A stretch of 64,000 nt of DNA, from the NCBI GenBank assembly GCA_944376845.1, contig CALWDZ010000001.1, positions 66,863 to 130,862 on the forward strand, in the 5' to 3' direction. Positions 45,533 to 55,004 of this stretch are shown in pieces (within the stretch, counting starts at the first letter, position 1; each line of letters begins with the position of its first letter). Both the position numbers and the translations under genes were made by a program. This stretch comes from an uncultured Clostridia bacterium. Lineage in GTDB: Bacteria; Bacillota; Clostridia; Christensenellales; UBA1242. The notes beneath the pieces were generated by a model that did no database searches, was not told where the DNA came from, and was given only the letters and a program-made list of their open reading frames with translations.

Positions 45533-46900
45533 TTAAAGAAATTTTTTAATCATTTTCTTTTTAAATTTTGAATGTGGTCTATATCTTAGTGGTACGTCCA
45601 TTTTTGTAGATTTGTTTATTATACTTTTATGGTGTGAAAATGTATCAAAACCACGTTTGCCGTGATATGCTCCCATTCCACTTTCTCCAACACCGCCAAA
45701 TGCTAAGCGTGGAGTTGTGAGATGCATAATTGTATCGTTTATACATCCCCCACCAAATTGAACACTATTTTCAAAAAAGTTTATGGTATTTTTGTTTTGG
45801 CTGAAAATATATGTTGCAAGTGGAGTATCATTGCGTCTTATTATTTCAAGTGCCTCTTCATATGTGCTATATGTTACCACTGGAATAATAGGTCCAAAAA
45901 TTTCCTCCGTCATGATAGGCGAATCAAGTTTTGGGTCAACCACAATGGTTGGCTCAATTTTTAGTGTTTGTCTATTAGATTTTCCGCCGTAGTAGATGTT
46001 TTGACCTTCAAGCAAACTTATAAGTTTGTCAAAATGTTTTTCTGAAATGATTTTGCCATAGTTTTCATCATCAAGTGGATTTTCTCCGTATTGGCGTTTA
46101 ATTTGTAAAACCAATTCATTTAAAAGTTTGTCTTTTACACTTTCGTGTACCAAAATATAATCTGGTGCTACACAAGTTTGTCCAACATTCATAAATTTTC
46201 CAAACACTATTCTTTTGGCTGAAAGTGGAATTTTGGCACTTTTATCTACGATGCAAGGGCTTTTTCCGCCAAGTTCTAAAGTGACCGTTGTCATATTTTT
46301 TTCTGCACTCTTTAGAACTTCATGCCCAACCGCTTTGCTTCCTGTAAAGAAGATATGGTCAAATTTTAAAGTCAAAAGGTCTTGGTTTGCCTCTCGCCCA
46401 CCTAGTATGCTTGCGATATACTTTGGTTCAAATGTTTTTGAAATTATATCAAATATAAGTTGACTTGTGGCTTTGGAATACGCCGAAGGTTTGACAATAG
46501 CGGTGTTCCCTGCGGCAATTGCGTCAACAAGTGGCTCCATTGTGAGCATAAAAGGATAGTTCCAAGGGCTCATAATGAGTACGTTGCCCTTTGGAGAAGG
46601 AAGCGTATAGGCTTTTGCTGGAAAATTTGCTATTTCTGTATGTACCCTTTTTGGCTTTGAAAAACTTTTTATGTGTTTCAACATATAATCTATTTCATTT
46701 ATTACAAGTGCAAACTCGCACATATAACTTTCTATCTCAGTTTTTCCAAGGTCGGTTTTTAATGCATTATATATATTTTGTTCATTGTCTAAAATTGCTT
46801 TTCTTAAATTTTTTAGTTGTCTTTTTCTAAACTTAATATTTTTAGTTTCCCCTGTCAAAAAATATTCTCTTTGATTTTGTAGAATCTGTGATGTTGTCAT
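45533..46900 (-). CDS. NAD(P)-dependent aldehyde dehydrogenase (class 3-like)
   Basis: VTLELGGKSPCIV (catalytic Glu motif), FMNVGQTCVAPDY (catalytic Cys), EEIFGPI, and FGGVGESGMGAYHGK typical of ALDH3-type enzymes. Confidence 0.9.
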   Translation of the reverse strand: MTTSQILQNQREYFLTGETKNIKFRKRQLKNLRKAILDNEQNIYNALKTDLGKTEIESYMCEFALVINEIDYMLKHIKSFSKPKRVHTEIANFPAKAYTLPSPKGNVLIMSPWNYPFMLTMEPLVDAIAAGNTAIVKPSAYSKATSQLIFDIISKTFEPKYIASILGGREANQDLLTLKFDHIFFTGSKAVGHEVLKSAEKNMTTVTLELGGKSPCIVDKSAKIPLSAKRIVFGKFMNVGQTCVAPDYILVHESVKDKLLNELVLQIKRQYGENPLDDENYGKIISEKHFDKLISLLEGQNIYYGGKSNRQTLKIEPTIVVDPKLDSPIMTEEIFGPIIPVVTYSTYEEALEIIRRNDTPLATYIFSQNKNTINFFENSVQFGGGCINDTIMHLTTPRLAFGGVGESGMGAYHGKRGFDTFSHHKSIINKSTKMDVPLRYRPHSKFKKKMIKKFL

Positions 46901-47045
46901 TATGTCCTCCTAATTTTTTTACAACCAAATGAAAGTATAGCATAAAATTATAAATAGAGTACTAAATTTATTGACATATTCTATGTAAATATGTGACAAA
47001 AGGTCATTAAAAGATGGTTTTAAGTTTGAATTAAAATTTAGATTA

Positions 47046-47206
47046 TAGACAAAATAAATAGACTGCCGAAAAACAAGTTAGGCAGGCTCGCAAAATGCAC
47101 AAAAGCAGGAGTTTAGTGACCTAAATGACTGTTTTTGTGCGTTTTGCAGTAAACGAAGCAAGAAAAAATTTTCAATTTTTTCGGTCACGCAGTTTTTCGA
47201 CAGTCT
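47046..47206 (+). repeat. Family-B ~161-nt structured interspersed element, copy 1
   Basis: Nearly identical to 53581-53742, with the last ~125 nt identical. It contains nested inverted repeats (see findings). Confidence 0.9.
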
Positions 47207-47243
47207 AAAAAAGGTTTGCCAAAATTTTGGCAAACCTTTTTTT
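47207..47243. terminator. Perfect palindromic bidirectional terminator
   Basis: AAAAAAGGTTTGCCAAAA/TTTTGGCAAACCTTTTTT. It overlaps the stop of the 47242-47640 gene. Confidence 0.8.
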
Positions 47244-47640
47244 AATTAAAAGTATCCATAAAATCTACATCAAAAGCAACTCCCAATTTTTCAAACATAG
47301 AAATAGTTGCTGGTGTTAAACCAATGATTGGTCGTTCATTAGTCTTTGTGAAAATCAAACTAAAAGTTGCTTTTCCGTTGTTGTTTGCAAGCACTTCTTT
47401 CAAATCGCCAAAATACTCGAAAATATGGCTAGTAAAACTTTCAATTGCTTGGTCGGTGTTGACATTTGTCGACTCCTTTGACCTATACCAAATTTTTGCT
47501 GCTTTGTGTGGACCTTTAGAATCTAAAAATGAGATTTTCTTATGTGCTTCAATGCCAAAATGCCTTTCAAGTTCATCCACATCCACATCTTTTTTAAAAC
47601 TAAGATGCAAACTTATATGATAACTATATTTTTCTTCCAT
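47242..47640 (-). CDS. DUF4279-like protein (family often seen as immunity-type partners in polymorphic-toxin loci)
   Basis: YHISLHLSFKKDVDVDELERHFGIEAHKK...ATFSLIFT...ISMFEKLGVAFDVDFMD fits the DUF4279 pattern as I remember it. Confidence 0.45.
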   Translation of the reverse strand: MEEKYSYHISLHLSFKKDVDVDELERHFGIEAHKKISFLDSKGPHKAAKIWYRSKESTNVNTDQAIESFTSHIFEYFGDLKEVLANNNGKATFSLIFTKTNERPIIGLTPATISMFEKLGVAFDVDFMDTFN

Positions 47641-51930: not shown

Positions 51931-53550
51931 ATGAAAGGAACAAATATGCACTTAACACTTGGGACAGAAGTAATTTATGACGATGCTTCTTTTCAAACCG
52001 CTCCCCTTGACAAAATTGGAGTTGTTGGTGTTAACGGCGCTGGAAAGACAACACTTTTTAAAGTTATTTTGGGCGAACAGGAACTTGATAGTGGACTACT
52101 ACAAACTGGCAAGGCAAGAATTGGTTTTTTGCCACAAGAAATAAAATTTAAAAATCCAAATTTGACTGTTTGGGAATATTTATTAACATCACGACCTATT
52201 GAAGAAATAAACAAAAAACTTGAAGATATATACGCCAAACTTGCGACATCAAATGAACAAGAAACAATAGCACTTTTAAGAGAAGTTGATGATTTGCAAG
52301 AAACTTTAAATATGCTCGATTGTTATAATGCTGAAAACACGCTACTAGAAATAGTTACCGACATGCAATTTGATGATGAACTTTTAAATACAAAACTTGA
52401 GGCACTTTCTGGTGGTCAAAAGTCTAAAGTCGCTTTTGCAAGCGTTCTTTATAGTAGCCCCAACATTTTGTTATTAGATGAACCTACAAATCACTTGGAT
52501 GCAAGTACAAAACAATATGTCATAAACTATTTAAAAAATTATAAAGGTTCCATGTTAATTATAAGTCATGACACAGATTTTTTAAATATGATAGTAAATA
52601 AAATTATGTTTATAGATAAGACAAAGCATAAAATTAAAATTTACAATGGAGATTACACATACTTTAAAAAACAACTTCTTGAAGAACGAAAACTTAAAGA
52701 AGCACGAATAAAAGAACAAGAAAATGAAATAAAAAAACTAGAAGAAATAGTAAAGCGAGCAAGGCAAGCCAGCCAAACCAACCATAATTTAAAAAGGCTT
52801 GGAAAAGATAGAGAGATAAAACTTGAAAAGAAAAAGGCAGAACTTGAAACGAGAGATAAAATCTACAAAAGAGTAAAGATGAACATAGAGCCTAAAAATA
52901 CAGGAGCAAAAGTTCCCCTTTCTGTTGATAATTTGACTTTCCACTATGAAAATAAGCAACTATTGTATGAAAATTTATCTTTTTGTATTACAAGCGGCGA
53001 AAAGTTTTTAATAGTTGGTGAAAACGGCGTTGGGAAATCTACACTTTTAAAACTAATTATGGGTAAATTAAAACCAGATAGTGGCACAATTTCTTTTAAT
53101 GCAAAAACCGATGCCGCATACTACGCACAAGAACTTGAAATTTTGGACGAAGAAAAAACAATATTTGAGAATGTCCAAAATCAGCACTACACGGACTTAC
53201 AGTTACGCACGGCACTTAGTAATTTTTTGTTTTTTGGACAACAGGTATTTAAAAAAGTCAAACTTTTATCTCCTGGCGAAAAAGCACGAGTGGCGCTTTG
53301 CAAAATTTTATTAAAAAAAGCAAATTTACTTGTTTTGGACGAGCCTACTAACCACCTAGACCCAGATACACAAGCCGTTATTGGTGAAAATTTTGGTGAC
53401 TATACTGGCACAATCTTGCTTGTAAGCCACAACCCAAGTTTTGTGGAGCAAATCGGCATAACAAGAATGCTACTCTTGCCAGAAGGTAAAATAATTGATT
53501 ATTCTAGAGAAATACTGGAATATTATTATTTAGTAAATTCATTACAATAA
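51931..53550 (+). CDS. ABC-F family ATPase (two ABC cassettes, no TM domain)
   Basis: GVNGAGKTTLF / LSGGQKSKVAFA / LLLDEPTNHLD, and GENGVGKSTLLK / LSPGEKARVALC / LVLDEPTNHLD. The cassettes are joined by a ~70-aa Lys/Glu-rich linker. Confidence 0.9.
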   Translation: MKGTNMHLTLGTEVIYDDASFQTAPLDKIGVVGVNGAGKTTLFKVILGEQELDSGLLQTGKARIGFLPQEIKFKNPNLTVWEYLLTSRPIEEINKKLEDIYAKLATSNEQETIALLREVDDLQETLNMLDCYNAENTLLEIVTDMQFDDELLNTKLEALSGGQKSKVAFASVLYSSPNILLLDEPTNHLDASTKQYVINYLKNYKGSMLIISHDTDFLNMIVNKIMFIDKTKHKIKIYNGDYTYFKKQLLEERKLKEARIKEQENEIKKLEEIVKRARQASQTNHNLKRLGKDREIKLEKKKAELETRDKIYKRVKMNIEPKNTGAKVPLSVDNLTFHYENKQLLYENLSFCITSGEKFLIVGENGVGKSTLLKLIMGKLKPDSGTISFNAKTDAAYYAQELEILDEEKTIFENVQNQHYTDLQLRTALSNFLFFGQQVFKKVKLLSPGEKARVALCKILLKKANLLVLDEPTNHLDPDTQAVIGENFGDYTGTILLVSHNPSFVEQIGITRMLLLPEGKIIDYSREILEYYYLVNSLQ

Positions 53551-53580
53551 AAAAATGTCAATATTTGACATTTCAGAGTG

Positions 53581-53742
53581 TAGACAAATAAACCAGATTG
53601 CCGAAAAACAAGTGAGGCGAGGCTCGCAAAATGCACAAAAGCAGGAGTTTAGTGACCTAAATGACTGTTTTTGTGCGTTTTGCAGTAAACGAAGCAAGAA
53701 AAAATTTTCAATTTTTTCGGTCACGCAGTTTTTCGACAGTCT
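53581..53742 (+). repeat. Family-B ~161-nt structured interspersed element, copy 2
   Basis: See 47046-47206. It is flanked by two copies of an ATGTCAA-loop-TTGACAT hairpin (53555-53571 and 53746-53763). Confidence 0.9.
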
Positions 53743-53768
53743 GAAATGTCAATTTTTTGACATTTTTT

Positions 53769-55004
53769 TTACTCTATAAACTCTGTATATCCAAATTTTT
53801 TAAGCGTTTCTTTTTGGAATTTTGTATTGTTACTTTTGTTTACAACCGTTACTATTTTTCCTTCTTTTCTTTGCTGGTTTGCCTTTTTCAAAATTTCAAG
53901 TTTATCGGCATTGCTACAATTTTTTGGCACTAGATATGCTATGTTCCCATCGTTTTGTATATCTATTAGATTGTTTTCACTTATAACAGATAATATCCTT
54001 TCAAGACCGATAGAAAAACCACAAGCACAGACATTTTTTGAAATGTATTTACCTATCATATTGTCATATCTTCCACCGCCAGCAACAGAGAGATTATAGC
54101 CTTCTAGTTCTATTTCAAAAATTGGTCCTGTGTAATATGACATACCGCGAACAAGAGTTGCATCAAAAACAATTTTACATGTTTTTTCATCTACAAGTTG
54201 TCTTGTCGATGATATTATTTCATTCAAGTTATCTATGACATTTTCGCCAATAAAACCTTTTAAACTATTGGCTAATTGTTGGTCACAAAGTGTATTTTCT
54301 TTTTCGCCGTCAAAATATTTGCAATATTTTTCAACATCATAATTATTTAAGCCCAACTCCACAAGTGCATTTTTTACGCCGTCAAGTCCAATTTTATCCA
54401 TTTTGTCCAAAGTTATATAAATCATATCAAGCATTTCTTCTGGAAAATTGCAACTTTTTGCCATGGCTTTTAGAATTGCCCTATCATTTATTCTAACTTT
54501 AATATTTTTAATATTCAATACACTTAGCATATTTACAGTTGCAGAAATAAGTTCAATTTCTGCAAGGTTAGTTTCATCTGCCAAGATATCGATATCACAT
54601 TGAGTGAACTGTCTAAATCTACCCTTTTGAGGTCTATCTGCTCTAAAAGACTCTCCAATTTGAAGTGCTTTAAAAGGCACAGGAAGTGAGTCCATATTGT
54701 TTGCATAAAACCTTGCAAGAGGAAGAGTTAAGTCATATCTAAGCCCAGAGTCACACATATCATTTATATCAGTGGCTTCTTTTAATTTTTCACCACGCTT
54801 TAAGATTTTGAATATAAGTTGTTCATTCTCCCCACCCATTTTCCCGGTAAGATTTTCAATATGCTCAATAAGTGGTGTTTCAATTAACATAAAGCCAAAC
54901 GTTTTGTATGTATCTTTAATTTTTCTAATAACATACTCTCTAAGTATCATTTGGTTTGGCGACTTTTCTGGCATACCTTTAACTGGTGTTTTAATAAAAT
55001 TCAT
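53769..55004 (-). CDS. hisS: Histidine--tRNA ligase
   Basis: LRYDLTLPLARFYA, motif 2 FRADRPQKGRFRQFTQCDIDI, motif 3 AGGGRYDNM, and a C-terminal anticodon-binding-type domain. Confidence 0.9.
   Translation of the reverse strand: MNFIKTPVKGMPEKSPNQMILREYVIRKIKDTYKTFGFMLIETPLIEHIENLTGKMGGENEQLIFKILKRGEKLKEATDINDMCDSGLRYDLTLPLARFYANNMDSLPVPFKALQIGESFRADRPQKGRFRQFTQCDIDILADETNLAEIELISATVNMLSVLNIKNIKVRINDRAILKAMAKSCNFPEEMLDMIYITLDKMDKIGLDGVKNALVELGLNNYDVEKYCKYFDGEKENTLCDQQLANSLKGFIGENVIDNLNEIISSTRQLVDEKTCKIVFDATLVRGMSYYTGPIFEIELEGYNLSVAGGGRYDNMIGKYISKNVCACGFSIGLERILSVISENNLIDIQNDGNIAYLVPKNCSNADKLEILKKANQQRKEGKIVTVVNKSNNTKFQKETLKKFGYTEFIE

Follow-up and report, generated by a model that had tools for sequence, protein, structure and literature searches.

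The window analyzed here is the whole stretch of 64,000 nucleotides (nt) at positions 66863-130862 of contig C1 (C1:66863-130862) in a metagenome-assembled genome (MAG) of an uncultured Clostridia bacterium. This genome, labeled G000, has a size of 1.02 Mb on 19 contigs, a G+C content of 32%, and an estimated completeness of 99.4%; it was compared within a set of 20 species of its genus, of which G017 is the closest relative. The window contains two copies, A and B, of a noncoding structured element that we call Family B. Copy A lies between the minus-strand genes 45533-46900 and 47242-47640, and copy B lies between the convergent genes 51931-53550 and 53769-55004. In the following list, which gives window coordinates, P1, P2, and P3 are the helices of the element from the outermost to the innermost, MFE stands for minimum free energy, and R1 is a covariance model of a hairpin family found throughout the genus.

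47039-47207, plus strand: Family-B copy A, whole element (5' extension, P1, core, extra hairpin, P1'), with termini TAGATTATAGAC...CGACAGTCTA, from alignment with other copies
47060-47074 with 47192-47206, plus strand: P1, 5' strand AGACTGCCGAAAAAC pairing with GTTTTTCGACAGTCT, from the MFE fold
47072-47168, plus strand: core of copy A (P1a, AGGCUCG loop, P2, GAG/UGA loop, P3, CAGUAAACGAAG loop), matching R1 with 89.1 bits, E = 3.9e-24, at G000:C1:113934-114030
47090-47147, plus strand: P2 (19 bp), inside which lie the GAG/UGA internal loop and P3 (hairpin 47111-47126), from fold and covariation
47162-47182, plus strand: Family-B-specific A/T hairpin GAAAAAATTTTCAATTTTTTC, then GGTCAC; the stem is kept and the loop differs between species
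47207-47243: perfect palindrome A6-GGTTTGCCAAAATTTTGGCAAACC-T7, resembling a bidirectional terminator, from sequence, fold, and open reading frame (ORF) list
53553-53573: left duplicated terminator hairpin of copy B, AAATGTCAATATTTGACATTT, direct-repeat score 17, gap of 0 nt
53574-53743, plus strand: Family-B copy B, whole element, with termini CAGAGTGTAGAC...CGACAGTCTG, from alignment
53607-53704, plus strand: core of copy B, matching R1 with 95 bits, E = 5.5e-26, at G000:C1:120469-120566
53744-53765: right duplicated terminator hairpin of copy B, AAATGTCAATTTTTTGACATTT, from the direct-repeat test

A preliminary description of this DNA had recognized a near-identical pair that diverges at its 5' end, and both points stand: copies A and B align at ~96% identity over ~165 nt, and their few substitutions and single indel all fall within the first ~45 nt. 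The borders that it gave (47046-47206 and 53581-53742) were too narrow. The termini (C/T)AGnnTGTAGAC ... CGACAGTCT(G/A), together with flanking duplications, place them at 47039-47207 and 53574-53743, where the similarity between the copies stops abruptly. Nor is the pair confined to this locus. BLAST and nhmmer searches of the genome recovered 8 copies of the Family-B type on 5 contigs, and many more exist in other species.

Two window copies and C12:666-832: full Family-B copies (3)
C10:37735-37893: Family-B-like copy, 83% identical
C6:3760-4041 and C5:51281-51561: Family-B-long copies (2), with a 121-nt insert inside the P2 3' strand
C5:47230-47345 and C12:9066-9180: Family-B copies without P2-P3 (2)

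The element is 169-173 nt long and AT-rich, with defined ends 5'-CAGnGTGTAGAC ... CGACAGTCTG-3'; the P1 strand that begins 20 nt inside the 5' end recurs in inverted form, with 15/16 matches, at the 3' end. It contains only short overlapping ORFs whose frames are not conserved among copies, in keeping with the earlier judgment that it carries no credible ORF. An orthologue of copy A exists in G017 (locus L153). The gene that flanks copy B was found in one relative only, also G017, where the contig breaks 44 nt after the gene.

Family B carries an insertion-type footprint at its borders. For each full copy, the 40 nt to its left and the 40 nt to its right were locally aligned, and a flanking repeat was counted where the best alignment abutted both ends with a gap of 0-1 nt. 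In 12/18 full Family-B copies, drawn from several species, the flanking direct repeats are a complete hairpin of 17-28 nt. Examples are AAGACTGTGGAAACACCGCAGTCTTT twice, AGATAACACAAATGTTATCT twice, AACAACGCAATATTTGCGTTGTT twice, and AAATGCTCCAAAC(T/G)GTTGGAGCATTTTT; the duplicated hairpin of copy B is AAATGTCAAT(A/T)TTTGACATTT. The hairpin loops are nonpalindromic and have the same reading on both sides, and the repeats are therefore direct rather than inverted. The upstream A run stays with the left repeat and the downstream T run with the right repeat, giving the layout [A run-hairpin-T(1-3)]-element-[A(1-3)-hairpin-T run], so that the duplication consists of the whole hairpin plus 1-3 flanking A or T residues. 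This is the outcome expected if a terminator is cut at both stem bases and its stem-loop is copied. At copy B, the left hairpin follows closely on an A run and on the stop codon of gene 51931-53550, and the T run past the right hairpin reaches 53770, where the convergent gene 53769-55004 ends. The proximity of both copies to terminators, pointed out in the preliminary description, is thus explained by terminators being the insertion target, with the hairpin duplicated on both sides of the element.

The same footprint recurs beyond these copies. A blind screen of 112 R1 matches from other MAGs yielded ~10 more hairpin repeats, all at the offsets of Family B (~32 nt before and ~41 nt after the core) and none at the offsets of typical members of the hairpin family; in the null for this screen, made from noncognate flank pairs, the 95th percentile of the score was 13.7. 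There is also one orthologous empty site. On contig C7 of G000, a single hairpin AAGATTGTGA..TCACAATCTTTTTTT (+ T7) is followed by ATTGTACAAGCAAAATTCGACAC, and the filled counterpart in G009 reads gene-stop...AAGACTGTGG..CCGCAGTCTTT-[B]-AAGACTGTGG..CCGCAGTCTTTTTTTT-ATTGTACAAGCAAAATTCGACAC. Family B inserts without orientation bias: by a rough count, ~5 copies are co-oriented with the gene of the terminator, ~5 are antisense to it, and many lie between convergent genes. Next to copy A, the palindrome at 47207-47243 closes the minus-strand gene 47242-47640; a simple terminator scan did not call it.

We conclude that Family B is probably a nonautonomous mobile element of ~170 bp, similar to a transposable element of the miniature inverted-repeat kind (MITE), that inserts at terminators in uncultured Christensenella-like gut Clostridia with small genomes. 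The family is recently active. Among the candidates named beforehand, the MITE is favored by the short and noncoding sequence, the dispersed nonorthologous copies, the target duplications, and the empty site, and the terminator-associated element survives in the sense that terminators are the target. As a mechanism, a trans-acting enzyme not encoded by the element would attack both strands at the foot of a terminator hairpin or cruciform that has been extruded, and gap repair would then copy the hairpin, as for IS1630 of the IS30 family; the enzyme could be an IS30-like transposase making a staggered attack. The hairpin fold and the invariant unpaired motifs of the element would be kept because recognition or propagation requires that it fold in single-stranded form, on the GCAGGAG strand. 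After insertion, the element would lie between a weakened and an intact terminator copy, from which cotranscription at gene 3' ends would be expected.

Several observations weigh against this conclusion. A clear duplication is missing from six of the 18 full copies, among them window copy A and its orthologue in G017. The terminal inverted repeat is imperfect, since the outermost 12 nt match in inverted form at ~8/12 positions only (CAGCGTGTAGAC versus CAGACTGTCGAA). No longer element with Family-B ends was found in G000, near rve genes of the genus, or in viral contigs. The single rve (IS30-type) gene of G000 was rejected as a source of the enzyme: it is part of a 12.2-kb element whose ends are GTAAAGT... 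and whose 17-bp duplication is not a hairpin. The rve/IS30-type genes of the genus, present in 8/20 genomes, were rejected as well, having ends unlike those of Family B. Finally, neither the invariant unpaired motifs nor the wobble pairs on one strand are readily accounted for by a plain DNA transposon, and a role of some kind as RNA or single-stranded DNA is therefore likely.

The wider search for a mobilizing enzyme was equally negative. The preliminary description had recommended looking for a cognate transposase with matching terminal repeats; none was found in these fragmented MAGs, in which transposase genes may be missing from the assemblies, and this weakens all enzyme negatives reported here. 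G005 and G017 have many Family-B copies and no rve match. Cas1, as the mark of casposon-type integration, was rejected, occurring only in G010 and G013, both without Family B. Y1_Tnp genes are present in 8/20 genus genomes, 7 of them with Family B, a weak co-occurrence; they too were rejected, being ordinary IS200-type genes with their own hairpins, unrelated flanks, and no similarity to Family B. The Y1 genes of G000 are three divergent IS200-type genes, one of them broken (C3:52389-52865, C3:26098-26454, and C3:20432-20789).

The central part of Family B matches ~30 further G000 loci that have quite different helix sequences and a common architecture: P1, an internal loop, a P2 of 17-19 bp, the GAG/UGA loop, and a P3 of 5-6 bp. 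The internal loop has an invariant AGGCUCG on its 5' side and CAGNAAAC(G/A)AAG on its 3' side, and the full motif set of this ~130-nt hairpin family (AGGCUCG, GCAGGAG, UGACUG, and CAGNAAAC) is carried by the window copies. R1 has 32 matches in G000, 4-42 in each of the other 19 genus species, few in the rest of the taxonomic family, and one elsewhere in the order. In an alignment of 20 G000 copies, 96.4% of cells are standard-paired and 135 are double-change cells, with a covariation score of 0.671 against 0.06-0.15 for controls in which the partner was slid by 1-3 columns. In an alignment of 118 distinct sequences from many MAGs, the values are 92.2%, 826, and 0.581, against at most 0.112 for the slid controls. 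Neither the window copies nor ten loci that hold typical copies matched any Rfam 15 family at E <= 1. The Family-B core is a subtype of this larger hairpin family, which itself seems to be uncatalogued.

Within Family B, the fold agrees closely with the helices proposed in the preliminary description. Both its outer helix (47060-47074 with 47192-47206) and its inner 19-bp helix with two G.U pairs (47090-47108 with 47129-47147) appear in the MFE fold, and the outer pairing is kept in all B copies. P2 and P3 covary across the hairpin family as a whole, and within Family B compensated changes between species are found in P2 (GCAC/GTGC, GCCC/GGGC, and GCTC/GAGC, and C-G to T-A at the helix base). 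The proposed pairing of a loop GTGACC with the downstream GGTCAC fared differently. Among 20 B copies, the P3 loop varies freely (GTGACC, GTTACC, GTGTCC, GTTCCC, GATGCC, and others) without compensation while GGTCAC is almost fixed, and the interaction is therefore unsupported. An alternative pairing of a 5' GTGA with a 3' TCAC has one compensated change, GCGA/TCGC, in the C10 copy.

Typical members of the hairpin family share the core with Family B and lack its shell, which consists of a 20-nt 5' extension CAGnGTGTAGACAAATAAAT, the P1 pair CAGACTGCCGAAAAAC/GTTTTTCGACAGTCTG, the extra A/T hairpin, and the GGTCAC box; they also lack the flanking duplication. They are strongly polar. Read on the GCAGGAG strand, 14 full and 2 partial G000 copies have their 3' end at the stop codon of a gene on the opposite strand, with 0-26 nt between core and stop codon, and one more copy adjoins the 3' end of an antisense tRNA. 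Thus, typical members sit on the stop codon of the antisense gene, whereas Family B lies outside an intact terminator, in either orientation and with its own ends. At C16:2114, a Family-B-like 5' extension is combined with a typical GC-rich P2. Read from the sequence, the terminator stem there overlapped the gene end, and the junction left by duplication of an 11-12-nt part of it now holds the stop codon, which suggests how contact with a stop codon could arise. At another gene end, orthologous between G000 (C6:69150-69260) and G005 (L175), different subtypes of the family lie directly at the stop codon. The inner P1, P2, and P3 differ (P3 is TTTAG versus CGTAC). Both species have kept the outermost AAAACGCAAAA and the downstream flank, suggesting that the interior is replaced, or turns over rapidly, while the site stays fixed.

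The strand asymmetry first noticed in the inner helix of the window copies, whose G.U pairs would be A.C mismatches on the other strand, persists throughout the family. Three wobble pairs are nearly invariant (U.G in 90/118 sequences, G.U in 112/118, and G.U in 112/118). Among variable pairs, G.U outnumbers A.C by 87:52, a count that is biased towards the GCAGGAG strand, to which the alignment was fitted. The three intermediates seen within Family B are all T.G on the GCAGGAG strand, and none is A.C. Folded together with the downstream palindrome, copy A gives -81.4 kcal/mol (z = -9.96) on the plus strand and -71.1 kcal/mol (z = -9.30) on the minus strand, a difference of 10 kcal/mol in favor of the plus strand. 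The wobble pairs, the intermediates, and this energy difference together suggest that selection acts on the fold of the GCAGGAG strand. The antisense position of this strand relative to the neighboring mRNA in typical members speaks against the element serving simply as a 3' hairpin of the mRNA; the strand data favor either a single-stranded DNA form or an antisense RNA.

Our preferred reading of Family B as a terminator-inserting mobile element leaves room for a broader possibility, which we put forward tentatively and regard as doubtful: the core could be a cis-acting single-strand recognition module (GCAGGAG strand) of a structure-guided insertion system that places hairpins at terminator bases and stop codons. 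Such a system may represent a terminator-specific pathway distinct from known insertion sequence (IS) families, in which Family B may be the active form and the polar stop-codon copies may be older products; in a variant, the core may be a functional antisense RNA riding on a mobile shell. Integron recombination sites of the attC type invite comparison here. They are imperfect hairpins of 60-140 nt directly behind stop codons, their structure is conserved above their sequence, and they function as a fold of the strand antisense to the gene, with unpaired bases as recognition points. The hairpin family shares with them the position at the stop codon, the conserved structure, and the antisense-strand fold. 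In contrast, it has no RYYYAAC/GTTRRRY core sites beyond AAC/GTT, its large conserved internal loops are unlike those of attC, and its copies lie scattered after housekeeping genes instead of forming cassette arrays. In addition, insertion of Family B leaves a target duplication, whereas tyrosine recombination at attC does not.

It is unlikely that these sequences are simply small structured RNA genes, each giving a discrete transcript of ~150 nt from the GCAGGAG strand, with helices kept for protein binding or antisense regulation and mobility only secondary. Such genes would account for the very strong covariation, the invariant purine-rich unpaired motifs (including the tandem G.A-type GAG/UGA loop), the conservation of G.U pairs on the GCAGGAG strand only, and the antisense position of typical members at the adjoining gene end. 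However, promoter scans found promoter-like matches no more often than in shuffled sequence and no conserved promoter at the 5' side, and Rfam holds no relative. Moreover, Family-B copies occur in either orientation relative to genes, and variants that have lost P2-P3 or gained the 121-nt insert persist and spread. One promoter-like match lies in the window at 47042-47069 on the minus strand (TCGGCA-16 nt-TATAAT, 10/12 promoter positions), within the TAGATTATAGAC variant of the 5' extension, and points outward from the element to the start of the minus-strand gene 45533-46900. This variant is carried by copy A, C12:666, and G017 orthologues; the more common CAGCGTGTAGAC variant is without TATAAT.

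A service to the host at gene 3' ends (termination or mRNA stability), with spread by recombination as for REP/BIME, ERIC, or SPRITE repeats, seems quite improbable to us. The elements are always intergenic, at gene ends and beside terminators, typical members take the place of the terminator directly after the stop codon, and one gene end bears an element in each of two species, all as this alternative predicts. But the mRNA strand in typical members is the strand with A.C mismatches rather than the favored one, and Family B is added to a complete terminator that it duplicates, which is an insertion footprint and not a functional replacement. The unbiased orientation of Family B also speaks against such a role. 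We find it very unlikely that Family B is a retro-mobile element similar to a short interspersed nuclear element, its RNA being copied by target-primed reverse transcription at nicked terminators. Although the duplications are long and variable, the junctions have the form T(1-3)/CAG...CTG/A(1-3), and the core is structured and strand specific, the duplication borders track the hairpin base exactly without a nick consensus, and both ends are precise, with neither 5' truncations nor A-tails. Furthermore, no RVT_1 reverse transcriptase domain was detected in G000, nor in G017, G016, G009, G018, or G001, several of the other genomes with many Family-B copies. A local segmental duplication or an assembly artifact, suggested solely by the proximity (6.4 kb) and common strand of the window copies, can be dismissed with near certainty because the flanks of copies A and B are unrelated, the 8 copies are spread over 5 contigs, and dozens lie at different loci in other species.

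If Family B is a mobile element of the kind that we favor, it represents more than 20 independent terminator-targeted insertions in uncultured gut Clostridia, each leaving a complete duplicated hairpin. To our knowledge, a footprint of this kind has previously been tied mainly to one IS of Mycoplasma. That element, IS1630 of Mycoplasma fermentans (IS30 family), targets inverted repeats and generates duplications of 16-26 bp, according to PMC2853133 and PMC3317919, both citing Calcutt, Lavrrar & Wise 1999. IS1630 resembles Family B in having long and variable direct repeats whose size follows the target hairpin instead of a fixed stagger; it differs in being an autonomous element of 1.2-1.4 kb with a transposase gene and 27-bp terminal repeats, whereas Family B has 170 bp and no gene. 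The interior of Family B, in contrast to IS1630, is a conserved covarying hairpin, and its ends are unlike those of any rve/IS30-type element found in the genus. Among small repeats, bcr1 of the Bacillus cereus group is a mobile noncoding Firmicute repeat of ~155 bp (Okstad 2004 and Klevan 2007, as outlined in PMC3184786). It shares with Family B a nonconserved distribution, flanking direct repeats, and a predicted fold kept by compensatory changes; it has a fixed 5-bp duplication and is transcribed (PMC3184786), whereas Family B duplicates whole terminator hairpins. By this analogy, bcr1 is the nearest described counterpart of a small mobile repeat with a compensated fold. We know of no member of the REP/BIME/REPIN, ERIC, Correia/NEMIS, RUP, BOX, or SPRITE families that duplicates a terminator hairpin. 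REP/BIME/REPIN-RAYT (Y1 HUH), ERIC, Correia/NEMIS, and the pneumococcal RUP/BOX/SPRITE repeats resemble Family B as multicopy intergenic palindromes at gene ends with long stem-loops (PMC3184786, PMC3733652). Yet REPs are 20-40 nt long and GC-rich, carry GTAG/CGTC tags, and make no target duplication, whereas Family B is 170 nt long and AT-rich and makes duplications; Correia and RUP duplicate TA instead of a terminator hairpin (PMC3184786, PMC3733652). Unlike the repeat-flanked genes of the REP/RAYT system, the Y1 genes here are IS200-like and have unrelated flanks.

The mobile shell of Family B provides a link to a larger covarying hairpin family that occupies gene ends in 1-Mb genomes, where hairpin repeats appear to be a sizeable part of the intergenic DNA. 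The enzyme, if found, would be a structure-specific, terminator-recognizing integrase that bears on how small genomes tolerate mobile DNA and that might be useful for inserting DNA at safe positions behind genes. In practical terms, Family B accounts for many contig breaks in these MAGs, and R1 can serve for annotation of the element.

Family B matches occur in 12/20 genus species and are strong and multicopy in ~10, with up to 18 matches per genome. Copies from other species are 88-94% identical to the window copy, whereas their flanking genes reach only 70-83% identity with the G000 orthologues. In a pattern scan of one genome per GTDB species, the hosts were uncultured Clostridia or Christensenella-like MAGs from horse, rabbit, chicken, and other guts, including "Candidatus Caccopulliclostridium" and "Ca. 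Stercoripulliclostridium." A MAG labeled Spirochaetales, JBFXFT01, holds true R1 members of 43-70 bits (L046, L060, L065, and L110), which could be due to horizontal spread, a binning error, or a mislabeled genome. The Family-B pattern was not found in viral contigs; four matches to the general pattern there were rejected as chance, and none matches R1.

In G017, a single Family-B copy (L169, G017:C80) joins flanks that in G000 belong to two C12 copies, the left flank of one and the right flank of the other. In G000 these copies, C12:666-832 and C12:9066-9180, are 8.2 kb apart and enclose genes for RNase R, a Fic protein, an ArsR-type regulator, and MetRS. We rejected a circular element formed between them; because the enclosed segment carries housekeeping genes, a rearrangement across the repeat or an assembly misjoin is more likely. 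Ahead of the 83% copy (region C10:37690-37900) lies a direct repeat, 26 nt long, of its 3' end and flank, CGAAGTTTTAGGACAGCCT(G/A)AG(G)TACT, and its P1 3' strand contains the stop codon and the four codons before it of the antisense gene 37880-38488. On two contigs of G009, C34 and C17 (L185 and L186, first 220 nt), a Family-B 5' half ends after GAGGCT and is followed by other hairpin repeats and the contig end; an autonomous element was considered for these contigs and rejected in favor of nested hairpin repeats at a contig end. Truncated stubs ending in ...ACGAGGCTC precede full copies at C6:38685, C6:39114, and C4:42265 of G000, and the AGGCTCG loop may be a recurrent breakpoint or insertion point.

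A third repeat family of ~120 nt, with a GCCAAATTGGC palindrome and a CCCCAAAAAGT...ACTTTTTGGGG hairpin, has ~10 copies in G000 and adjoins several core elements. Two of its copies are nested in the P2 3' strand of the Family-B-long copies (C6:3847-3968 and C5:51350-51471); others are at C5:74353-74458, C11:21106-21460, C11:24932-25047, C16:5493-5588, C10:614-728, C17:394-481, and C6:17012-17097. The Family-B-long form also occurs in other species, where it is seen as a match pattern of 1-93 plus 101-173.

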